Assembly (NCBI GenBank): GCA_017482415.1
Contig: JAFUMY010000112.1
Coordinates: forward strand, 1-48,674
DNA: 48,674 bases
Direction of reading: 5' to 3'
Source: Clostridia bacterium
GTDB lineage: Bacteria > Bacillota > Clostridia > Christensenellales > Borkfalkiaceae
This document shows, one piece after another, positions 711 to 43,744 of this stretch. Below the pieces are notes generated by a model. That model made no database searches and had not been told where the DNA came from. It saw only the letters and a program-made list of their open reading frames with translations. Each line of letters starts with the position of its first letter. Position 1 is the stretch's first letter. The translations under genes were made by a program, and so were the position numbers.

Positions 711-3700
711 ATGAAAACGTTGAGTATGAAAAAGCTTAAAGTAATCGTACTGTCGTGCCTGCTTTTCTTGGCGACCTTTTTTGGGCTTGCCATGTGGAAG
801 CTGGATTCTAAGACGGCGAGCGCAAACGTAACCTTGAACCCCGACACGTATAAAACGGCGGGCGGTTCCGTGCGTCTTTTTAACGACGAGGGGGACGTGT
901 ACAGTCAAAGAAAGGGTATTCGTTTCCATATTCTTTTGGAAAAATCCCTGTATGAAACGTACAGCGCGAATGAAAATTTCGTATCCTATACGGTCGTATT
1001 GCCTAAGAGTATTTTAGGCACGGCGGAGCTTGGCTACGATACTCCGAAAGCGGTAAAGATTAACACGACGGAGTATTGGCAGGAATACGACAAGGATACG
1101 TCCTTTATGGAATCTATCGCTTACATATACGATCTTCCTGCGACGAAGCACGCAACCGATCTTTGCTTTATGGGCGTGTTCTCGACGGACGGCGGTTCGA
1201 CCTGGAACAAAACGGACGTAGGCGTGAAGAGCATGGCGTACGTTGCAAAAGCGGCGCGCGACGATGCAAATGCAAACTGGAACGATACGCAAGAAACGGC
1301 GTTAAACTACTATATTCCTAAGTACCAATACACCTACCAGGTAGGCAGTGCAAAAACGACGGAAACCGTTGAATACGGCGACGCGTTGAATATTCCTACG
1401 CTTGCGGAAAACACGTCTTGGTGGTATGAAGAGGGCAACGGCGAGGTTGCGCCTCCTACGGCGGCTACGTTTGAAAACTTAGGCGGTGCGGAAACGACGA
1501 AAATTCAGCTCACTTCGACAACAACCAGTCAATTCGTTTTGACGGGCGTTAATTATACGGAAACAGGCTTTAAGGTATGGGCTACGCTTTCCGCGAAAAA
1601 CTTTGGTCACGGTACGACGCTCAGCCCTGAAAACGTTGATATGGTCAAGGGCGATGGCACGGTTGTAGAAGCGAAGACGGTTACGGTAGAAGTTGTAAAT
1701 ATCAATGAGAATGCGGCGACGGATGAGGCTAAATATGCCGATGCGAAATCGCAGCTTGTTATCAGCTTTGATTATGACCAAATTTCTAACGGCGATACGT
1801 TGACGATTTTGAAGAGCTCGCAGTTCTATTACAACGGTTGCTTGTACGAGTTGGGTACCGATTACACCTTCGAATACAACAACGCAAACTGGCAGCTTCC
1901 TCTTGGTGAAATCCATCTCGGAGACATTGCTACAATTGTGAATTATACGGAAGGTCCTGAAAATGATAAGGAATATAATATTCGTGTTACTTTCCGTAGC
2001 GATTTCTTAATCAACGGCGGTGCAACGCTGGAAAAGGCAGACGGCTGCACGAAGGAAAGCAGTATTTATATTACGCGTTTTATAGGTGGTAGCGTGGATT
2101 ATATCACCACCGGTTATTATTATTGGAACCAAGGCGCTAATAAAATCCTTGAACTTCCTCAAACCAACGATCTTTGGGGCGAAGAAGACGGCGACGTTTT
2201 GACGATTGAAGCAGGTACGAAGCTGGTACAAAACAACGGCTACTATGTATTTGCAGAAACGATTACGGCAACGTATAGCGGTGGTGTCGATTGGGTCTTC
2301 TCGTTTGATGAGCATAATATCACCGCGGGGGAATTTAAGACTGCAAGTACGCGAACGGAAATCGATAAAGATGGTAACGAACAGATTTATATTGACGTTA
2401 CGACGAACACCCGTTGGGCGGATAGGACGGTCAAGGTTGTACTCAATGACGGCAAGTTGACATATCACAATACCGACAACGTAACGGAGCTCAATCCCGA
2501 TAAGATATACTACCACGGCGAAACGGCAGCAAACGGCACGCAATATTCGCTGCTGCGTATCTATTTGGACAAAATGAGCGTAACGGGGGACTGGGTAACC
2601 ATCCCTGCTAATACAGAATTCTGGGTGGGCGATCAGATTTATAGATTGACGGAAGACGTTATTTCTTATTACGTGTATGAACCCGAAGTTGGCTCTGGTC
2701 AATGGATCACGAATCCCGAGGTTAAGGACATTTCGGGAGCGGATATCCTTTCGATGAGATTTAACACGGACGATAATGGTCAAACCTATTCCATTCGTTA
2801 TACGACGAAGGAAAGCTGGTCGGATTACGGTTGGAATCGTGTTATCGTAGACGATACCTTCATTGACGGCGAAGGCGTTGTCTGTCATGGTACGAATTAT
2901 TCAAAATTCTTCTATCACGGCGCAGGGAATAATCTGTTTGAAATCCAAGGCGTAAACTTTGGTGCGGCAGGTGGCTCTGTAACCATTAAGGCGGGCACGT
3001 ATTTGTGGCTCTTGAATAACAGCAATCTTTCGTTTGAGGGCGCTTACCGTGTTACAGAAGATTTGTCGATTAGCGTTTCCGGCTCGAACGGCTCACCTGT
3101 TTATAAGGACGCCAACCTTGGAACGATTTGCAAGAGCGATATTGCGAGCTTCAGACACGACGGTTCGCATAGCGGTGAAATTCGTATTTCCTTGAACGGT
3201 GCGCTGATTCAAGGCGTATACGGTTTTGCGGACGTAGACGGCACGGCTACCTTAAACGGCTCGGCTACGACCAGTGGCTTCGTATATGGGTACAAGGAAG
3301 GCGTATATACAGGCAATACCATTCTTGCGTTTACAGGCGAGGATTTTGGAAAAGCATTCCAGGCAACGGCGGTGGGCGATAAGCTTTCGGTTGCGGAAGG
3401 TACGAAGCTTTGGCTTAGAGATGGCGCGGGTTACGTATTGATTGGCGATACGTGGAATTACGTTTGGAACGGCTCTACGTACGTAGACCGCGAGGCGACC
3501 TATGCGGTAAGCTTCAATGTGGCGAATGCAAAAATTACCGTAGACGACGAGGAGGTTACAAACGTAGCAGTTCAAGCGGGCGATCGCGTAACCTTCAAGA
3601 TTACCCCGAACGCAGGCTGCGAACTTTTGTCGGTAACGGGCGCAACGCAGAATCCTGACGGCTCGTATACGACCGATTATATCTTCAGCGGTACGACGGT

Positions 3701-4883
3701 TACGGTCAATGCGGCGGCTTACATTGATTTGGGCCTGAACTGTGTAAGCGGTATTAGCCGCTATAAGGAAGGTGTATATACGGGCGTTCGTATCAATCTG
3801 AATGAATCGGCGGTTGCAGGGCTTAACAATATCAGCGGTGGACACTATGGCATGGCTGTGAGCGGTGAAATGTCGTTGCTTGTCGGCGGCGTTGACGCAA
3901 ACTTCGATGCTTCTGGTGCATTCAACTACTTTGGGGCTGAACACGGCTCGTTGTTAGAGCTTCGTTTTGATACGACGAATCTGGAAGCAGGGGATATGTT
4001 CACAATCAAAGCGGGCACGATATTCTCGCATTCGAATATCCCTTATAAGCTCAGATTCACCGTAGACGTTATGGGTATTTATAATGGTGCTGAATGGAAG
4101 CCCGTTCTTAACCCTACGAAAGTGGGCGAGTTGAATTGGAGCACAATCCATAGAATTGCAAGCTATTCTGACGTAAACAATGGCGTTCCGCAAAACTATA
4201 CGATTCGTATGAGCTTAACGGAGGAGCTGTTTGGCGGCTCGACAAGCTATCAGGTAGTAGTCGGCGGTAACGTTTATTTGAACGGCATGGCTTATACGGG
4301 TGCTTGGGCATACCACGGTAACGGCAACAAGATTTTGCAGTTGTCGAACTGGAACTATGAGGCAGGCGACGTACTCGAGATTGAGGCTGGTGCGAAGATT
4401 TATATGGGCTCCTCGTACTATGAAGTAACGGAGACGTTGACGGCGCTTTGCACCGCAAACGGAAACGGCGCTACGTGGAACTGGGTAAGAGAGTCCACGC
4501 CGAAGCTTGGCGAAATCGATTGGTCGACGGTAGGCAATATTACAAGCTTCTCCGATTTAAAGGACGGAGTGGCGCAGAATTATATGATTCGTATATTCTT
4601 GACTGAGGCATTGTTCAATGGCGCACAACAGAACCATACGATATTTGCGTTAGACGGCGTAACGCTGAACGGCAATGCATACGTAGGTACTTGGACATAC
4701 CACGGCGGCGTCAATAAGATTTTGCAGATTGACACGTGGAACTATAAGAGTGGCGACGTATTGGTGATTGCGGCAGGCACGAAGATCTGTACTTCGACAG
4801 GCTATTACGAGGTAACGAAGACCTTGACGGCAACCTGTTCGGCAGACGGCACCGGCGCAACGTGGAACTTTACGGTTTCCTAA
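711..4883 (+). CDS. Large exported repeat protein (1390 aa), function unknown
   Basis: GGAGG at 700-704, 6 nt before the ATG. The N-terminus MKTLSMKKLKVIVLSCLLFLATFFGLAMW...TASA|NV looks like a signal peptide or signal anchor with an A-x-A cleavage site. At least 7 divergent modules share an aromatic-aromatic-(H/N)-G...N-(K)-I-L ... G-D-x-(L/V)-x-I-x-A-G-(T/A)-K core. The last two units (about 4111-4496 and 4497-4880) are clear tandem copies. No LPXTG or other anchor motif seen. Confidence 0.85.
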   Translation: MKTLSMKKLKVIVLSCLLFLATFFGLAMWKLDSKTASANVTLNPDTYKTAGGSVRLFNDEGDVYSQRKGIRFHILLEKSLYETYSANENFVSYTVVLPKSILGTAELGYDTPKAVKINTTEYWQEYDKDTSFMESIAYIYDLPATKHATDLCFMGVFSTDGGSTWNKTDVGVKSMAYVAKAARDDANANWNDTQETALNYYIPKYQYTYQVGSAKTTETVEYGDALNIPTLAENTSWWYEEGNGEVAPPTAATFENLGGAETTKIQLTSTTTSQFVLTGVNYTETGFKVWATLSAKNFGHGTTLSPENVDMVKGDGTVVEAKTVTVEVVNINENAATDEAKYADAKSQLVISFDYDQISNGDTLTILKSSQFYYNGCLYELGTDYTFEYNNANWQLPLGEIHLGDIATIVNYTEGPENDKEYNIRVTFRSDFLINGGATLEKADGCTKESSIYITRFIGGSVDYITTGYYYWNQGANKILELPQTNDLWGEEDGDVLTIEAGTKLVQNNGYYVFAETITATYSGGVDWVFSFDEHNITAGEFKTASTRTEIDKDGNEQIYIDVTTNTRWADRTVKVVLNDGKLTYHNTDNVTELNPDKIYYHGETAANGTQYSLLRIYLDKMSVTGDWVTIPANTEFWVGDQIYRLTEDVISYYVYEPEVGSGQWITNPEVKDISGADILSMRFNTDDNGQTYSIRYTTKESWSDYGWNRVIVDDTFIDGEGVVCHGTNYSKFFYHGAGNNLFEIQGVNFGAAGGSVTIKAGTYLWLLNNSNLSFEGAYRVTEDLSISVSGSNGSPVYKDANLGTICKSDIASFRHDGSHSGEIRISLNGALIQGVYGFADVDGTATLNGSATTSGFVYGYKEGVYTGNTILAFTGEDFGKAFQATAVGDKLSVAEGTKLWLRDGAGYVLIGDTWNYVWNGSTYVDREATYAVSFNVANAKITVDDEEVTNVAVQAGDRVTFKITPNAGCELLSVTGATQNPDGSYTTDYIFSGTTVTVNAAAYIDLGLNCVSGISRYKEGVYTGVRINLNESAVAGLNNISGGHYGMAVSGEMSLLVGGVDANFDASGAFNYFGAEHGSLLELRFDTTNLEAGDMFTIKAGTIFSHSNIPYKLRFTVDVMGIYNGAEWKPVLNPTKVGELNWSTIHRIASYSDVNNGVPQNYTIRMSLTEELFGGSTSYQVVVGGNVYLNGMAYTGAWAYHGNGNKILQLSNWNYEAGDVLEIEAGAKIYMGSSYYEVTETLTALCTANGNGATWNWVRESTPKLGEIDWSTVGNITSFSDLKDGVAQNYMIRIFLTEALFNGAQQNHTIFALDGVTLNGNAYVGTWTYHGGVNKILQIDTWNYKSGDVLVIAAGTKICTSTGYYEVTKTLTATCSADGTGATWNFTVS

Positions 4884-4890
4884 AAACGAT

Positions 4891-4928
4891 AAAATCCTCT
4901 TACGGAAATTTCCGTAAGAGGATTTTTT
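4891..4928 (+). terminator. Intrinsic terminator of the 1390-aa protein gene
   Basis: aaaatcctcttacggaaa / tttccgtaagaggatttt is a perfect palindrome (core stem cctcttacgga, loop aatt, tccgtaagagg) running into a T-tract, 8 nt after the stop. Confidence 0.85.
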
Positions 4929-4930
4929 GT

Positions 4931-5162
4931 GGTGAAGTTTGTCTTTTAGACAAGTGAAGTTCACTTCGTGAGTGAAGTTTGGGCTATGCCCAAGTGAAGT
5001 TTTTACTTCGTAAAAGATATGGCTGTTATTTATACGTAAAAACCGTTTTAAATAAAGCCTAAACTAAGCTTGCCGATTAGGCAAGCTTAACTTCACTGTT
5101 CGCGCAACGAACAACTTCACTTGCTTTCAGCAAACTTCACTTGTCTAAAGGACAAACTTCAC
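4931..5162. repeat. Intergenic composite repeat element, copy A: four forward GTGAAGTT, a conserved core, four AACTTCAC
   Basis: GTGAAGTT at 4932, 4954, 4972 and 4994. AACTTCAC at 5089, 5113, 5133 and 5155. Spacing is 18-24 bp. Spacers are short palindromes (tgtcttttagaca, tgggctatgccca, gttcgcgcaacgaac, tgctttcagca, tgtctaaaggaca). The core 5002-5088 is about 90 percent identical to that of copy B at 11568-11802. Confidence 0.9.
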
Positions 5163-5201
5163 CTATAATAGACTTGATGATAAAAAACCTTTCCAATTCA
5201 C

Positions 5202-5237
5202 AAAAAAAACGGACCCTTCCAAAAGAGTCCGTTTTTT
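5202..5237 (-). terminator. Intrinsic (bidirectional-looking) terminator of asnA
   Basis: aaaaaaaa-cggaccctt-ccaa-aagagtccg-tttttt. Read on the minus strand it is a stem-loop followed by eight T, 8 nt after the asnA stop. Confidence 0.75.
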
Positions 5238-5244
5238 CAGTTCA

Positions 5245-6252
5245 TTACAACAGCACTACGCCTTTTTCTGCACAGGTACGTCGGGTTTGTTCATCCCAAA
5301 GGGAAACCTGTACTTCGCCGATATGCGCTTTTCCAAGCAACAGCATGGAAAGCCTTGATTGCCCGATACCGCCGCCCATTGTAAGAGGTAATTTTCCTGC
5401 CAAAAGTGCCTTATGGAAGGGGAGTGCTCTGCGCTCGTCTAAGCCCGATTTTTTCAGCTGTTCATCTAAGGCTTTTTCGTCAACTCGAATACCCATGGAC
5501 GAGATCTCCATCGCACAGCCGAGTACGTCGTCCCAGAACAAGATATCACCGTTTAAGCTCCAATCGTCGTAGTCGGGGGCTCGCGAATCGTGCGGCTTTC
5601 CCGATTTCAGTTTATCGCCAATCTGCATAATAAATACCGTTTTATGCTCTTTCACAATGGCGTTTTCGCGTTCCTTAGAGGAAAGCTCGGGGTATAAATC
5701 TTCAAGCTCCTGTGAGGTGATAAATTTCACGGTACGTGTCAGCTCAACACCGATTTGCGGATACCGACAGCGCAGAAAATCGAGGGTGTCGCATATCGCG
5801 CCGACAATGCCCCGTACTACGTTTTTAAGATATTCGACGTTTCGAGTTTCAGGGGTGATAATCTTTTCCCAGTCCCACTGATCGGTGTACACCGAATGCA
5901 GGTTATCCATTTCCTCGTCACGGCGGATTGCGTTCATGTCCGTATACAAGCCCTCGCCTGCGGAAAAGCCGTAAACAGAGAGCGCCATACGCTTCCATTT
6001 TGCGAGCGAATGCACCACGACTGCATCCTTCCCCGTCTCCTTTAAATCGAAACGAACGGGGCGTTCCGTGCCGCTTAAATCGTCGTTTAAACCTGTCGTA
6101 GGGTCAACGAAGAGGGGGGCAGATACGCGTTTAAGGTTCAAAACGAGGCAAAGCCGCTCTTCAAAAGTGCGCTTCAATAGCCCGATCGCCGTCTGCGTAT
6201 CGTATAAGCCCAAAGCCGATTCGTAACCCTTTGGAATATATACCTTACTCAT
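5245..6252 (-). CDS. asnA: Aspartate--ammonia ligase (asparagine synthetase A), 335 aa
   Basis: Length and sequence are typical of AsnA (class II aaRS-like), e.g. MSKVYIPKGY...LYDTQ.AI, EISSMGIRVD, GGGIGQSRL. I chose the ATG (mirror 42423) 10 nt after gaaaagg rather than the GTG 4 codons upstream used by the track. Confidence 0.88.
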   Translation of the reverse strand: MSKVYIPKGYESALGLYDTQTAIGLLKRTFEERLCLVLNLKRVSAPLFVDPTTGLNDDLSGTERPVRFDLKETGKDAVVVHSLAKWKRMALSVYGFSAGEGLYTDMNAIRRDEEMDNLHSVYTDQWDWEKIITPETRNVEYLKNVVRGIVGAICDTLDFLRCRYPQIGVELTRTVKFITSQELEDLYPELSSKERENAIVKEHKTVFIMQIGDKLKSGKPHDSRAPDYDDWSLNGDILFWDDVLGCAMEISSMGIRVDEKALDEQLKKSGLDERRALPFHKALLAGKLPLTMGGGIGQSRLSMLLLGKAHIGEVQVSLWDEQTRRTCAEKGVVLL

Positions 6253-6283
6253 GATTTTTAACACCTTTTCGTGAATTTATCAT

Positions 6284-6443: not shown

Positions 6444-6529
6444 AATGAATAGAAGCGAGAAACGCTTTTTTTGCTTTTTACGGAGGACTGTTACCGAAAA
6501 AGTAAAAAGAAAAATGGAGGTATAACTCA

Positions 6530-9500
6530 GTGAAGAAATGGCTCAAAAAAGCACTCGTTGCCCTTTCTTGTGTGACGCTTGGCACGACGTTGATGTTCGG
6601 CTTTGCGGCATGTAAGGACGACGAGGAAAGTTCCAGCGGTAAAAAAGACTCGTCTACGACGGCTTGTACGCACGTATGGAATGAAGGCACAGTGCAAACG
6701 GCGGCAACCTGTACAACGGACGGTAGCATGCTGTACACCTGTACGAAGTGTAGCGAAACGAAGACGGAAAAAATCGCAGGCGGACACAAGTACAACACGA
6801 CGGTTGTCGAAGCGACTTGTCTTTCGGACGGCTACACGCTGAACACCTGTTCGGTTTGCGGTACGACCCAGAAGACGAACGTAACGAAGGCGGGCGATCA
6901 CAACTATCAAGAAACGGTTGTAGCAGCGACCTGTACAACGGACGGTATGACGACGTATACCTGTAAAGGCTGCGGCGACAGCTATCGTAACGTCACGGCG
7001 CGCGCGACCGGTCACAACACCGATGGCTGCACGTGGACGACGGAAGAAGTGCAAATTGCGCCTTGCACCTATCAAGGTATTGAAACAACAAAATGTAAGT
7101 CTTGCGGCGAGTCTATTGTGGTTGTTGTAAGCGAATACCAAAAACATGCAAACACGCATGTTACCACTATGGCAGCTACTTGTACGACAGTCGGTACAAA
7201 AATGATTGAATGTAATGATTGCGGCGAAAGAATTACCGAAGAAATCGCAATCAATCCCAATGCGCATGATTGGCAGGTTAGCGGTACGAATAACGGCTTG
7301 ACGAGCTATAGCTGTCAGCACATCGGTTGTACAGAAACCAAGACTGTATTCTCTGCAAAGACGCAGACCTCGGCTACCGTTCCTTCCTCGGCAATTCAGG
7401 ATGCAGGCGAGGTAGAGCTTCAAAACGCAGCGATTAAGATGGACGAGGCTGTTAAGAATCAGCTCGGCAGCGCAGACGTTAATCTTTCGGTTGAAGAAGC
7501 GGACGTTTCGGGAATTATTGATAACGAAACGGCAAACAAGCTTGGCAATAACCCTGTATACAACTTCAATATGTCGAACGCAAGCGGCCCGATTAAGAAT
7601 TTCAACGGCGAGCTTACCGTAACCGTTCCTTATACGCTTGAATACGGTATGGACCCCGATGAGGTCAGCGTTTATTACATAAACGATGAGGGTAAAGTAA
7701 CGGCAATGCCTGCTACCTATTCCGAGGTAAACGGCGAAGGCTTTGCTACCTTCACCACCAACCATTTCTCGTATTATACGGTTATCCGTTTGACGGCGGC
7801 AGAACGCTGTGCAGCATACGGGCATACCTATAAAACGACGGTGGTTGATCCTGCATGTAATCAGCAGGGCTACACGGTAAAGACCTGTCTTGTTTGTAAG
7901 AAGGTTGAGCCCCGCACGAACTTCACGCCCGCGCTTTCGCATAACTATTCGTCGGCGGTCGTTGCGGCTACCTGTACGGAAATGGGCTATACCGTATATA
8001 CCTGTTCGCTCTGTAACGACAAATACGTTTCCGATTACACGGCAAAGGTTGCGCATAAGTATGAAGATAGCGTAACCGCACCTACCTGTACGGCAAACGG
8101 TTATACGACGCATACCTGTACGGTATGTAATTCGTCCTACACCGACAGCGAAACGGACGCAAAGGGCCACACCTATGCGAACGGCGCTTGCAGCGTTTGC
8201 GGTCGTAAGGACCCCAATGCGGCGACCAATAACTTCTACTGGAATATGGTAGAAAGCCTTGCGTTGGTAGAAACCTATTATCTTGAAGTAAGCGGCTTGA
8301 ACATCGAAATGGTGAATACCTATTCGAACGGTGACAAGCAGAACATAACCTATAAAATGTCCCTTGCACAGGTACAAATCGGATTCGACGAAACGGGTAT
8401 CGTAGGCAAAGGCGAGGGTACCATGGTCATGACGAACGAAGAAACGGGCAAATCCCCGTCCTCGGATAACGCTTCCGGCGTTATGAAATTCGTATTCCGT
8501 GACGGTATGATTTACGCATACACAAAGGCAACGGAAACAATGGGCGCTGCTTACGAACAGTATATGGTTGTTCCTCAATCGTATATGTTCGATATGGAAG
8601 AAGATGAATTCCCTGCGTTTATTCAAATGATGAGCGGCAACGTTGCAGAAATCGGCGGTTTGCTTTCGGGCTTTGGCGCAGGCGAAAACAGCCGTATGAA
8701 CAACGTCCTGAAAACGGTCATTGAATATTGTTTCACCAAGACCGAAACGGAAAACGGCTATATGTTCACGTTGAATGCAGACCGCGCGCTTGAAATGTAC
8801 AATGCGATTAAGAACAACACGGTTGATAAGCTTTTCGACCTCGTGTTCGGCGAAGGTGCGTTTGCGGCAACGCAGAGCTTCCTTGTAGCTTCCGTTGATA
8901 AGACGGTTGCCCAGTTTGAAGCGGACGTTAAGACCGAGCTTGCAGCATGGGGTATCAATATTGATACGGTATATACCTTTATCAACAAATATGCCGGCAT
9001 GATGGGTAACATGGGCGGCGGCTCTGTTGGCGGCAACGCTAGCAGCAACAGTAGTATGCCCAGTCAAGGTATTCAGGGAGGCGTGAAGCCTATGGCGGCA
9101 AACGAAGCTCCCGAAGCATTCGACATCAAAGCGACGATCGCGGAAATGGGCAACGTGAAGATTTCCGAGGTCCTCGACGAGATGCTTAGCGAAGTGGTAG
9201 AGGAAGCGATTGATTATAAAGCGATGATCAATGAGTGCGCTGAACAGCTCAAAGCGATGAAGATTTTTGATATGGCAGAGCTTTCGGACGGCGAAATTGC
9301 AGATATTCAAGCGACGATTGAAGACGTAACGAAGGCACTTCGTAACAACCCTGTAACCTTCACGACGGATAAATCGGGTGCGCTCCTTTCCTTCGGCGCG
9401 AAGCTTACTGATTTCGTTCCCGTAGACAATACGGGCAAGACGCTTGGTCAGGACGGTGTTTACACCCTTTACGACGTGAAGATTAACGGCGAATTTAAGT

Positions 9501-11506
9501 TCGTTGCAGACGGTACGTATGCAGGCGTATACGAAGACGTAGTTGCAAAGGCAGAAGCTGCAAAGAAAGCATATCAGTTCACGGAAGGCTTCGAAACGGA
9601 TAACTATAACGTTTACGTAGTAGACGGCAAGACCTATCTTTGGTACTTTGGCGGCGATTCGTCCGACGATTACTACTATGATGAAGAATGGTACCTTTCC
9701 GACTACGACATCGAAAACGTTTACGGCACGGAAACCTATAACGGCAAGACTTGCACGAAGGCAAGAATTCGTCTCACCAACCTCTATATGATGAGAGATA
9801 GCGACGTTGATTTCATGGCGTCCACCGATTGTCACGGTTGGTTGATTTCGGAAGGCTACTGGCGCGGCTACTACGGCTACTGCGATGCATGGATTGATGC
9901 AGACGGTAACGTGGTTGGCACGGAAAACGTACTCGTTCAAGATTGGAATCAGAGCCGTTACTTTACCCTTGCATACAACGCGGCGACCGGCGAATACGCT
10001 TCGGGTACGCAGCATTGCTACAAGCTGGTTGAAACGAAGAAAGGCGAAGGCTGTGCATACACCTATGAAATCTACGAATGTACCGTTTGCGGCGCACGTA
10101 CCGCACAGTACGTAGACGGCGGACATAACACCCAGATGTATTACGAGCTCGCTCCCGGCTCCACGAGCTGTGAGGACGGTGTATACATGTATTGGAAGTG
10201 CGTAGATTGCGACAGAATCACCTCTTTCCATAAAGAATATTATCATAATACCTATCGCCACGAATACGTAATTGAAGACGTCAGCGAAGAGTGCGGTGAT
10301 ATGGTTGTCGTATGGTATGAATGCGCTTGCGGTGCAGAAAAGTATATTGATCATTGGCAAGGCAACGGAAGCAATATGCATTATTTTAACAATTCGGATA
10401 GGCAGTATATCGTTGACGAGCATACGCATAGAAATTATATCGAAACGTACACCTGCTCGCTTGAGCTTTGTCAGTACAAGTACACGGTAGAATGCGATTG
10501 GAATTATAGCTACAATGGCACGGAGGACGGCTGTCAGGTATGGTCTACCTACACCTACCGTTTCTTCGATAAGGCAGGCAACGTAGCGCTTACGTTGGTG
10601 GATAACGAAGGACCGTATAACCGCCATTATTACGACACGTATTCTTCTACGGAATACAGCAATAAGTACGGTACAGGTTGGGAAACGAAATGGACCTGCC
10701 AGCACTGCGGTACGGTTACCTCTTGGTCTCGTAATACTTATGATGAACATGGTAGACAGACCTATTATGAGGACGTGTTGGGTACTTACGGTTGGTACAG
10801 AGAATACGACGAGTATTGCACGTACATGCAATATGACCTTAAAACGGGCGAGTATGAAACGAGCGGTACGAACCATAACTACCAATATGTAAGCGGTAAG
10901 GATGGCGATTCCTGCACGCAGTACTATTACGAGGGTAGAATTTGCAGCGTGTGCGGAGATGAAGACGGCTACTACCGCGCGCCTGATGAGCATTGGTGGG
11001 CTAACCACGACGACGGACACAACTGGTACTATAACGGTGACCATTACTATTGCGGACACTGCGGAACGGAAAGCTCCACGGGCTCGGATGCAATCATTTC
11101 CCTTGAGGATATGGTAGAAGACGGCGTGCTTAAGGTGGGTTACTATAACTACCGTGAATGGAGAGCCGTTCAAGGTCAGGATAGCCTTGTGCTTGTCGAC
11201 ATCGTTTTGAACTACGATTACAACAGCACGGAGCGTATTACCATCACGGCGGACGATTTGTACACGAAGGTGGTAACGAGCCCTGAAAACGAATGGAAGG
11301 GCGACCACTGCTACGAGCATAACCGTGAAAGCGGTATCGTAACCGTGAACATGGACGTTTTGAAGGCGTGCATTGCAGAGTTGGGAATCGAGGTAGAAAA
11401 CGTTGCCGTAATCTTCAGCGTTGAAGAAAGAACGATTGTTGAAGGCGGCGAGGCTACGTGGCTTGAAATGGCGTTGACCTTCGATGCTTCGGAGCTTGCG
11501 CTCTAA
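6530..11506 (+). CDS. Giant lipoprotein (1658 aa) with repeated Cys3-His modules, function unknown
   Basis: GTG start at 6530, 9 nt after GGAGG (6516-6520). MKKWLKKALVALSCVTLGTTLMFGFAAC is a lipoprotein signal peptide with a lipobox Cys. There are repeated modules of about 33 aa of the form (A)TC-x3-G-x5-C-x2-C ... (G)H-x-(Y/W). About 5-6 lie at 6660-7355, 3-4 at 7805-8215, and more degenerate Cys/His/Tyr/Trp-rich units at about 10005-11090. Confidence 0.85.
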   Translation: MKKWLKKALVALSCVTLGTTLMFGFAACKDDEESSSGKKDSSTTACTHVWNEGTVQTAATCTTDGSMLYTCTKCSETKTEKIAGGHKYNTTVVEATCLSDGYTLNTCSVCGTTQKTNVTKAGDHNYQETVVAATCTTDGMTTYTCKGCGDSYRNVTARATGHNTDGCTWTTEEVQIAPCTYQGIETTKCKSCGESIVVVVSEYQKHANTHVTTMAATCTTVGTKMIECNDCGERITEEIAINPNAHDWQVSGTNNGLTSYSCQHIGCTETKTVFSAKTQTSATVPSSAIQDAGEVELQNAAIKMDEAVKNQLGSADVNLSVEEADVSGIIDNETANKLGNNPVYNFNMSNASGPIKNFNGELTVTVPYTLEYGMDPDEVSVYYINDEGKVTAMPATYSEVNGEGFATFTTNHFSYYTVIRLTAAERCAAYGHTYKTTVVDPACNQQGYTVKTCLVCKKVEPRTNFTPALSHNYSSAVVAATCTEMGYTVYTCSLCNDKYVSDYTAKVAHKYEDSVTAPTCTANGYTTHTCTVCNSSYTDSETDAKGHTYANGACSVCGRKDPNAATNNFYWNMVESLALVETYYLEVSGLNIEMVNTYSNGDKQNITYKMSLAQVQIGFDETGIVGKGEGTMVMTNEETGKSPSSDNASGVMKFVFRDGMIYAYTKATETMGAAYEQYMVVPQSYMFDMEEDEFPAFIQMMSGNVAEIGGLLSGFGAGENSRMNNVLKTVIEYCFTKTETENGYMFTLNADRALEMYNAIKNNTVDKLFDLVFGEGAFAATQSFLVASVDKTVAQFEADVKTELAAWGINIDTVYTFINKYAGMMGNMGGGSVGGNASSNSSMPSQGIQGGVKPMAANEAPEAFDIKATIAEMGNVKISEVLDEMLSEVVEEAIDYKAMINECAEQLKAMKIFDMAELSDGEIADIQATIEDVTKALRNNPVTFTTDKSGALLSFGAKLTDFVPVDNTGKTLGQDGVYTLYDVKINGEFKFVADGTYAGVYEDVVAKAEAAKKAYQFTEGFETDNYNVYVVDGKTYLWYFGGDSSDDYYYDEEWYLSDYDIENVYGTETYNGKTCTKARIRLTNLYMMRDSDVDFMASTDCHGWLISEGYWRGYYGYCDAWIDADGNVVGTENVLVQDWNQSRYFTLAYNAATGEYASGTQHCYKLVETKKGEGCAYTYEIYECTVCGARTAQYVDGGHNTQMYYELAPGSTSCEDGVYMYWKCVDCDRITSFHKEYYHNTYRHEYVIEDVSEECGDMVVVWYECACGAEKYIDHWQGNGSNMHYFNNSDRQYIVDEHTHRNYIETYTCSLELCQYKYTVECDWNYSYNGTEDGCQVWSTYTYRFFDKAGNVALTLVDNEGPYNRHYYDTYSSTEYSNKYGTGWETKWTCQHCGTVTSWSRNTYDEHGRQTYYEDVLGTYGWYREYDEYCTYMQYDLKTGEYETSGTNHNYQYVSGKDGDSCTQYYYEGRICSVCGDEDGYYRAPDEHWWANHDDGHNWYYNGDHYYCGHCGTESSTGSDAIISLEDMVEDGVLKVGYYNYREWRAVQGQDSLVLVDIVLNYDYNSTERITITADDLYTKVVTSPENEWKGDHCYEHNRESGIVTVNMDVLKACIAELGIEVENVAVIFSVEERTIVEGGEATWLEMALTFDASELAL

Positions 11507-11565: not shown

Positions 11566-11567
11566 AG

Positions 11568-11802
11568 GTGAAATTTGGGCTGCGCCTAAGTGAAGTTCAT
11601 TTTGTGAGTGAAGTTGCGCTGTTAGCGCAGTGAAGTTTTTACTTCGTAAAAATTATGGCTGTTATTTATACGTAAAACCGTTTTAAATAAAGCCTTAACT
11701 AAGCTTGCCTTAAAAGCAAGCTTAACTTCACTGTTTGCGTAGCAAACAACTTCACTTGGCTAATAAGCCAAACTTCACTTTTGCTTTAGCAAAAACTTCA
11801 CT
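11568..11802. repeat. Intergenic composite repeat element, copy B (same family as 4931..5162)
   Basis: GTGAAATT at 11569, then GTGAAGTT at 11590, 11608 and 11630. AACTTCAC at 11724, 11748, 11771 and 11794. It shares the core tttttacttcgtaaaa..atggctgttatttatacgtaaaa.ccgttttaaataaagcct.aactaagcttgcc...gcaagctt. The inter-9-mer spacers are palindromic like those of copy A, and the hairpin spacers differ in sequence. Confidence 0.9.
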
Positions 11803-12047
11803 TATCTTTTAAAATTCTGTCTCAAAACTCGCAAAAGCGGTTATATATCTATCGTAGGTTTACAAATTAAACAAGGGAAAGGCGTAGCTTGCGATATTTT
11901 TTAAAAAAACGAGGCGAAAATGCTTGGAGTTTCCTTTTAAATATTGTATAATATAAAGTGATGGTAAATTGCCTAAATATGCCTATTTGGTCTTGATAGG
12001 CTTAGGCAAACGAGACAAGAAAAAATAAATCTATCGGAGTTTTTCTA

Positions 12048-36872: not shown

Positions 36873-37107
36873 AGTGAAGTTTTTGCTAAAGCAAAAGTGA
36901 AGTTTGGCTTATTAGCCAAGTGAAGTTGTTTGCTACGCAAACAGTGAAGTTAAGCTTGCTTTTAAGGCAAGCTTAGTTAAGGCTTTATTTAAAACGGTTT
37001 TACGTATAAATAACAGCCATAATTTTTACGAAGTAAAAACTTCACTGCGCTAACAGCGCAACTTCACTCACAAAATGAACTTCACTTAGGCGCAGCCCAA
37101 ATTTCAC
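36873..37107. repeat. Composite GTGAAGTT repeat element, mirror of copy B
   Basis: Reverse complement of 11568..11802. Confidence 0.9.
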
Positions 37108-37109
37108 CT

Positions 37110-43473: not shown

Positions 43474-43512
43474 GTGAATTGGAAAGGTTTTTTATCATCA
43501 AGTCTATTATAG

Positions 43513-43744
43513 GTGAAGTTTGTCCTTTAGACAAGTGAAGTTTGCTGAAAGCAAGTGAAGTTGTTCGTTGCGCGAACAGTGAAGTTAAGCTTGCCTAATC
43601 GGCAAGCTTAGTTTAGGCTTTATTTAAAACGGTTTTTACGTATAAATAACAGCCATATCTTTTACGAAGTAAAAACTTCACTTGGGCATAGCCCAAACTT
43701 CACTCACGAAGTGAACTTCACTTGTCTAAAAGACAAACTTCACC
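43513..43744. repeat. Composite GTGAAGTT repeat element, mirror of copy A
   Basis: Reverse complement of 4931..5162. Confidence 0.9.

Follow-up and report, generated by a model that had tools for sequence, protein, structure and literature searches.

The window analysed here is the whole 48,674-nucleotide (nt) stretch of contig JAFUMY010000112.1 from a Clostridia bacterium of the Borkfalkiaceae, and the element under study, copy A, lies in it between the gene of a 1390-aa protein and the convergent asnA gene. The window was its own reverse complement with 0 mismatches, centred on 24337/24338, and holds 24,337 nt of unique sequence. Since this palindrome carries housekeeping genes (secA, prfB, tsaD and asnA), it is almost certainly an assembly fold-back rather than biology, and the four clusters of sites in the window therefore correspond to two independent copies of the element, A and B, and their mirror images (Table 1). 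The left junction of copy A is not a product of the fold-back, because L122, a separate assembly of the same strain (AsnA 100% identical), reads '...ggattttttgtggtgaa' and then enters an N run exactly at copy A.

Inverted arrays and hairpins in the window

Copy A starts 5 nt past the T run of the terminator of the 1390-aa gene. The sequence GTGAAGTT was found in it at 4932, 4954, 4972 and 4994 on the forward strand and at 5089, 5113, 5133 and 5155 on the reverse strand, in exact agreement with the four-plus-four arrangement described in an earlier note made from the sequence alone. The whole window contained 32 matches to this 8-mer against 1.8 expected, a number reached by 0/100 shuffles. The outermost units, 4931-4961 and 5133-5163, were 97% complementary over 31 nt, confirming the near-identical inverted repeats noted before, as was the placement of the element behind a terminator (an 18-bp palindrome) and between convergent genes.

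Table 1 Features of the window
Feature	Coordinates	Strand	Description
1390-aa open reading frame	711-4883	+	no Pfam match
Intrinsic terminator of the 1390-aa gene	4891-4931	+	perfect 18-bp palindrome 4891-4926, then T run; context, outside the element
Copy A	4931-5163		independent copy
Copy A left arm	4931-5002	+	four (G)GTGAAGTT sites, three hairpins: tgtc-ttt-t-agaca, cac-ttc-gtg, tgggc-tat-gccca
Copy A core	5002-5088	+	hairpin tttac-ttc-gtaaa (5002-5015), AT-rich stretch near-identical to that of copy B
Copy A core hairpin aagcttgcc-gatta-ggcaagctt	5065-5089		match to the canonical-family module 'CTAAGTTTGCC...GGCAAACTT'
Copy A right arm	5089-5163	-	four AACTTCAC(C) sites, three hairpins; minus-strand reading is a GTGAAGTT-hairpin array
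asnA	5245-6264	-	convergent with the 1390-aa gene; copy A between them
1658-aa open reading frame	6530-11506	+	no Pfam match
Copy B	11567-11802		independent copy
Copy B left arm	11567-11637	+	degenerate GGTGAAATT at 11567-11575; GTGAAGTT at 11590, 11608, 11630
Copy B core	11638-11723	+	~95% identical to copy A core
Copy B right arm	11724-11802	-	AACTTCAC at 11724, 11748, 11771, 11794; three hairpins
Mirror of copy B	36873-37108		not independent; from window palindromy
Mirror of copy A	43512-43744		not independent; from window palindromy

The spacers between sites had been read as small hairpins, and this was borne out by their stem content: the outer stems of the six same-arm spacers summed to 26 bp (copy A) and 25 bp (copy B), and 0/20,000 composition-preserving shuffles reached either value. 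At equivalent positions the hairpins of copies A and B differed in sequence, and the cores of the two copies were nearly identical. Across the family, 148 distinct spacers (58 + 90) contained 557 Watson-Crick stem pairs versus 17 internal mismatches, and stems such as tttTGC/GCAaaa, tttCGC/GCGaaa and tttCAC/GTGaaa differed by paired transitions. Because the stems stay near-perfectly Watson-Crick while their sequences change in this way, the hairpins are conserved as structures and not as sequences. Within the family, successive sites started 16-26 bp apart, a distance that tracked hairpin length; there is therefore no helical phasing rule, and the two-helical-turn spacing previously proposed for copy A was not upheld.

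As RNA, copy A had a predicted folding energy of -114 kcal/mol (z = -14.5 versus shuffles), and as DNA -72.5 kcal/mol (z = -13.8). Its minimum-energy fold was predicted to be a branched rod, in line with the earlier suggestion that the paired arms would form a rod bearing side hairpins. The internal stem mismatches (4 G-T versus 2 A-C) were too few to choose the folding strand. Wobbles in a long-range CTAAGTTTGCCC/GGGCAAACTT helix favoured the top strand, not significantly, and the composition of the loops (81% pyrimidine in left arms, merely AT-rich in right arms) was not decisive for strand.

Both giant reading frames next to the copies vary among relatives: L120 has the two, L125 the 1658-aa frame alone, and L123, L124 and L126 neither. 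A 1597-aa frame (6527-11320) is open antisense to the 1658-aa frame, which suggests that this region is strongly biased or repetitive in sequence.

A dispersed family related to Gut-1

Rfam searched at its curated thresholds gave no match in the whole window. With permissive filters on a short stretch, each arm, read on its own strand, aligned end to end with Gut-1 (RF01706, gathering threshold 50 bits). All four scores were below this threshold: 41.1 bits (E 6e-7) for the left arm of copy A at 4930-5005 (+), 30.9 bits for its right arm at 5109-5180 (-), 38.8 bits for the left arm of copy B at 11566-11641 (+) and 26.2 bits for its right arm at 11744-11822 (-). Relatives that carry the window's 8-mer exceeded the threshold (57.4 bits in L118, 52 and 51 in L029 and 50.9 in L124), so the element does not stand outside every described family, although the earlier note had recognised none. 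The Gut-1 consensus has four GUGAAAU linkers with three hairpins between them, which is the anatomy met in the window arms; the likeness extends to the purine-rich (G)UGAAAU type of the conserved linkers, to the co-varying hairpins and to the gut habitat. The window arms differ in being sub-threshold and in using GUGAAGUU.

Gut-1 was described from human-gut metagenome sequence, with no sequenced organism (Weinberg et al. 2010, PMC2864571), and Rfam types it as a small RNA (sRNA) gene. When five Gut-1 seed sequences were viewed with their flanks, all carried an array of the complementary unit downstream, clear in 2 and degenerate or distant in 3; in one example, GUGAUAUU x3 is followed by AUAUCAC x4. 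On the evidence of these flanks, the published Gut-1 motif is one arm of a larger palindrome. The published motif is thus a single arm listed as an sRNA of unassigned function, whereas the elements described here are inverted pairs of arms around a core, insertion-polymorphic and linked to PF05635 genes. Searching the literature with the 8-mer as text returned primer noise only, and no paper on such arrays was found under Gut-1, S23p or STRR.

To define the family, genomes (one per species) were scanned for three GTGAAGTT sites 8-18 nt apart, which yielded at least 119 loci. After coding tandem repeats had been set aside, at least 86 hairpin-spaced clusters in at least 78 loci were left, and at least 55 of these clusters were inverted composites of 3-4 forward sites, a core and 3-4 reverse sites. 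The element is thus not confined to the two loci of the window, a case in which the earlier note would have given up the idea of a distinct family: other genomes contributed some 80 loci at least. Among the loci listed, nearly all hosts were Oscillospiraceae, Acutalibacteraceae, Christensenellaceae and other gut or rumen Clostridia, represented by metagenome-assembled genomes (MAGs).

In the canonical layout, common to most of these loci, ACTAAGTTTGCCC-loop-GGGCAA is followed by three GTGAAGTT-hairpin units, then by a short core with GGGCAAACTT at its end and by 3-4 AACTTCAC-hairpin units; many copies then carry a terminator-like hairpin. The GGGCAAACTT at the end of the core can pair with the 5' module, and the two co-vary. 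The window copies are a variant of this layout in which the 5' module is present as a complete local hairpin in a longer core (5065-5089). Scanning metagenomes with a 20-mer of the window-type core gave one match only, a chance match within a coding region, so the 87-nt core of this type looks lineage-specific. Across dozens of species the partner arm was almost always exactly AACTTCAC, and hairpins and cores varied freely. The element was co-oriented with the upstream gene in 33 versus 10 cases and usually lay 16-130 nt past its stop codon. Solo arms without a partner arm were present in L076, L048 and L075.

Filled and empty sites were compared in relatives found through AsnA. In L120 (AsnA 96% identical, same gene order) both window copies were absent: at site A a 120-nt spacer holds the same terminator directly followed by unrelated sequence, and at site B 43 nt stand where the window has a 236-nt element. 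Site B was also empty in L125 (AsnA 89% identical). The empty sites that the earlier note had proposed to look for in relatives thus exist for both copies. L123 and L124 encode an identical AsnA protein, and L124 has two extra insertions of ~205 and ~235 nt, one behind the asnA terminator and the other directly after a stop codon. These represent a variant family in which one arm carries GTGAATTG and the other ATTTCAC (= GTGAAAT); the arms carry GTGAATTG and GTGAAATG and are not exact complements. Eleven near-identical canonical copies from different species lie in unrelated flanks. Collectively, these comparisons showed that the family is dispersed and that copies come and go between close strains.

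Some individual loci had features of their own. The eleven near-identical copies (L027, L033, L049, L052, L081, L096, L097, L100, L105, L028 and L031) are embedded in a conserved unit of ~400 nt, with a 12-bp hairpin AGCGTGATACTC...GAGTATCACGCT upstream and, downstream, a terminator-like hairpin and then GTTATAAGGGTTTGGGCTTAGCCC...TTGACTAGTCAAATGCGATGCT. L076 has three solo forward arms (20-130, 775-910 and 3880-4150), each followed by a conserved stretch (AGTTATTCGGTAAGAGACCTCATAGCTTCGG...). At site B of L120 (2615-2660), 'GGTGAAAAATTGCAC' stands directly before the shared right flank, like two outermost half-sites fused, and may represent the footprint of an excision, what is left of a decayed copy, or a favoured target. 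A scan of viral contigs with the three-site pattern gave 58 matches, almost all of them coding tandem repeats, with real elements in L148, L133, L173 and L180 only. L148, a 17-kb contig classed as viral, has two complete GTGAAGTT elements in opposite orientation (3845-4037 and 7848-8042) and also matches the phage GP20-b RNA motif.

PF05635 genes beside the arrays

No recurrent transposase or integrase family was found among the clustered neighbouring reading frames of the at least 119 loci. The only small gene family enriched beside the element was PF05635 (23S rRNA intervening-sequence protein / Avd / S23p), a family of four-helix-bundle proteins whose nearest solved structure is 2rld, a five-chain entry. 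In the 'MKDSELR' subfamily, a GTGAAGTT array ended 20-35 nt before the ATG in 11/11 fetched genes; the full composite was present in 10/11, and in L075 a reverse arm lies on one side of the gene and a forward arm on the other. Several of these loci lie behind a rumA-type methyltransferase gene.

The divergent 'MTDNKNQ' subfamily was associated with a different unit, arranged as TCGATAT-hairpin x3-4, a core and ATATCGA x3-6, in 12/12 fetched contigs and in L035. These arrays (L035, reverse strand, ~2750-2455; L197-L208) had no Rfam match, and their unit number varied between strains (L199 versus L197). Gene-less 4+4 elements of the TCGATAT type were found in L064 (6063-6238), L133 (5142-5309) and L180 (755-922), on contigs that also carry GTGAAGTT elements. 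The complete form of the architecture is, in relatives, a fixed leader or flank of PF05635 genes. Homologues of both subfamilies were mostly on contigs shorter than 3 kb and in clusters of hundreds of member sequences, which is the assembly look of repeat-flanked multicopy genes.

Departures from the usual spacers were seen at these genes. Where an element precedes a four-helix-bundle gene, as in L029 (590-660) and L186 (1890-1970), its right-arm spacers are not hairpins and have direct GAGCG/GCGAG repeats (tgtgagcgaagcgaac, tacgagcgagagcgagt). In L087 (reverse strand), contiguous hairpin-less runs of GTGGAGTT/GTGAAGTT 8-mers, followed by spaced AACTCCAC units, flank a third-subfamily PF05635 gene on both sides.

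As a check independent of the 8-mer, we drew 13 PF05635 genes from the plasmid records of other phyla (L192-L196 and L209-L216). Tandem arrays of short, 7-nt units and their complements surrounded the gene in 9/13, usually with the array upstream and the complement downstream; 2 of the remaining genes were unclear and 2 had no arrays. The units were AAGGTTY with RAACCTT in Riemerella, CAGGAGT with ACTYCTG in Nostoc, Aulosira and Trichormus, and GGGAGTA with CCCTACT in N. edaphicum. In Pseudanabaena, between cas6 and cas4, AGCTTTT and then AAAAGCT are both upstream and AAAAGCC downstream; a 23S rRNA intervening sequence of Azospirillum has GAGGACR units and their complement, and arrays were also present in Leptolyngbya and Stanieria. 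The sampled genes (cyanobacteria, Riemerella, Azospirillum, Gemmatirosa) sit within operons or a 23S rRNA gene, the host operons being cas6-cas4, an Fe-S cluster assembly gene with sufB, and ribonucleotide reductase subunits.

Possible nature of the element and alternatives

The element is a variant on three known themes, namely Gut-1, palindromic repeats of intergenic regions, and elements like the intervening sequences of rRNA. Those intervening sequences are selfish, have terminal inverted repeats and are excised by RNase III, and some carry an S23p reading frame proposed to act in mobility (PMC4990558). The element resembles those found in 23S rRNA, for example that of Coxiella, in being a selfish insertion whose inverted repeats form a long stem (here predicted), in having short forms without a reading frame alongside PF05635-bearing ones, and in its sporadic occurrence among strains (PMC4990558). 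It differs in lying between genes, behind the terminators of protein genes, rather than in a 23S rRNA helix, and in a stem built from repeated 8-mers with side hairpins instead of a plain inverted repeat. In addition, the PF05635 reading frame of such cassettes is missing at the window copies and present in relatives.

We hypothesize, tentatively and at somewhat less than an even chance, that the element is a mobile palindrome resembling an intervening sequence but carrying no gene, with 8-mers that are putative sites for a PF05635-type protein. The 8-mers would be recognised by such a protein supplied in trans, a role suggested by their invariance in the partner arm, which was left unconstrained, amid surroundings that vary throughout. 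Something besides pairing constrains them, since the two arms of the L124 insertions are not exact complements. The hairpins would space the 8-mers and present them on a folded single strand. Upon read-through past the upstream terminator, the arms may pair into a branched stem resembling the one in an rRNA intervening sequence; by analogy, this stem would be a likely RNase III substrate and 3'-end structure, because RNase III cutting is known for the intervening sequences (PMC4990558). The window copies would then be orphan derivatives, comparable to intervening sequences without a reading frame next to those that have one, or to REPs next to a RAYT locus.

Several observations weigh against this hypothesis. 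There is no PF05635 gene in the 24 kb of unique window sequence, nor beside either copy. The link between unit and subfamily is weaker than the counts suggest, as a single locus, 3' of the rumA-type gene, supplies most of the examples; with a gap of 20-35 nt between leader and gene and mostly this one locus, plain co-inheritance could explain the match. No convincing target-site duplication was seen in four filled/empty comparisons: the cleanest pair (L124/L123, site 2) had none, and the other 3/4 were blurred by additional sequence differences. With stems this close to perfect Watson-Crick pairing, their mismatches do not distinguish between RNA, single-stranded DNA and a cruciform. Arms vary in their number of units (3-7 in Clostridia, 2-14 in other phyla). 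Finally, we know of no catalytic activity of four-helix-bundle proteins of this kind, so they cannot by themselves explain insertion.

A broader proposal, which we regard as possible but doubtful, is that arrays of a short unit and its complement are the cis partner of PF05635 proteins across phyla and form one class of intervening-sequence-like cassettes, with Gut-1 and the window element among its gene-less forms. A pentameric protein would then bind the repeated units on the folded strand and be needed for the spread or maintenance of the array. The idea of one unit per subunit of the pentamer was set aside, as the units per arm vary widely.

The main rival to sites for a PF05635-type protein, unlikely but deserving serious attention, is a purely structural selfish palindrome of the ERIC, Correia or frame-less intervening-sequence type, with no sequence-specific protein. 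The 8-mers would let the arms zip in any register, the transcript would be an RNase III substrate or a stabiliser of the 3' untranslated region, spread would occur by recombination or a host process, and the PF05635 genes would be frequent passengers. In agreement with this, the fold predicted is a branched rod of high stability, RNase III is known to cut the stems of intervening sequences (PMC4990558), the orientation of the element agrees with that of the upstream gene (33:10), and the arrays at PF05635 genes in other phyla use very different units, as if any would do. Like Correia/NEMIS, ERIC and BOX, which are transcribed palindromic repeats of the type of miniature inverted-repeat transposable elements (MITEs), the element falls in the size range of 120-240 bp and has inverted ends, intergenic dispersal, likely co-transcription with a neighbour and a transcript that would form a long hairpin; it differs from them in that no target duplication was seen and in arms made of modular arrays of 8-mer and hairpin. 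However, pairing alone predicts that 8-mer and complement drift together, and the partner arm is instead almost always exactly AACTTCAC; the inexact complementarity of the L124 arms and the solo arms of L076, L048 and L075 argue in the same direction.

The earlier reading as a MITE-like derivative or as a REP/BIME-like repeat was right in outline: the element is dispersed, non-coding, inverted and insertion-polymorphic, although neither a recurrent transposase nor a cognate RAYT was found in the at least 119 loci and the window. Like REP, BIME and REPIN sequences, it combines a short conserved motif with a palindrome, arrayed and inverted, in intergenic regions after genes, and many orphan copies contrast with few beside the cognate gene; it differs in that the units within one arm are direct repeats and do not alternate. 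A REP unit consists of a GTAG motif and a hairpin. A MITE in the strict sense, that is, a deleted transposon whose 8-mers are bound by a conventional (Tn7/Mu-like) transposase or, on folded strands as with REPINs, by an HUH/RAYT enzyme, is consistent with the terminal inverted repeats, the multicopy dispersal and the insertion polymorphism, and each arm, read on its own strand, shows a short conserved motif 5' to a hairpin, much like the REP unit. We nevertheless consider it improbable. No transposase or integrase recurs beside the element, the associated gene encodes a four-helix-bundle protein without a known catalytic motif, and no RAYT is associated with it in the at least 119 loci and the window. 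Nor do the sites resemble Tn7 or Mu ends, which have several ~22-bp sites per end and a 5-bp target duplication: here they are of 8 nt at variable spacing, with no clear target duplication and no TnsB/MuA-type gene nearby, and the Tn7/Mu-like reading is therefore not supported.

The sole RAYT-like gene in these loci and the window, in L021, was considered as a cognate and rejected, being flanked by its own, different repeats. In this Ruminococcus MAG, a Y1 transposase gene of RAYT type (4531-5076, -) lies with five + three inverted repeats of ~27 nt within 4150-5310, a classic REP/RAYT arrangement unrelated to the GTGAAGTT element.

That each arm is a Gut-1 sRNA, so that the element would be a pair of convergent genes for trans-acting sRNAs, is quite unlikely. 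Rfam's typing of Gut-1 as an sRNA gene, the co-varying hairpins and the terminator-like hairpin after many copies would fit such genes, but the element is multicopy and lacks conservation at the orthologous sites of close relatives. Moreover, the arms face each other on opposite strands, and a transcript of either would continue into its complement; no promoter was evident, the sole sigma-70-like match (5141-5169) pointing outward from the right end of copy A and not being above chance, and hardly any G-U pairs occur, unlike what is usual in an old structured RNA. An operator, iteron or centromere-like array bound by protein as duplex DNA, also raised in the earlier note, would account for eight identical 8-bp sites in two opposed sets, but is very improbable given the unphased 16-26 bp spacing, co-varying hairpins whose structural conservation would be pointless for duplex binding, and many copies per genome in chromosomal intergenic regions behind the terminators of unrelated genes.

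Returning to the hypothesis of sites for a PF05635-type protein, Gut-1 has been listed for more than 15 years as a structured RNA without a function and was known only from gut metagenomes; the Gut-1 arm can now be placed in an insertion-polymorphic palindrome of named Clostridia lineages. In practical terms, such elements break short-read assemblies, as seen in L122 and in the contigs of PF05635 genes shorter than 3 kb. The origin and mobility of rRNA intervening sequences lack an explanation, and the evidence presented ties them to Gut-1 and to PF05635. S23p/PF05635 proteins are very common, and diversity-generating retroelements are, to our knowledge, the only setting in which a role for them is known. 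Three orphan features can thus be brought under one testable hypothesis, that the protein binds the repeat unit, and the link between the arrays and PF05635 is the part most worth following up. If the cross-phylum proposal were true, it would provide a function for this very common protein family and explain the origin of rRNA intervening sequences.

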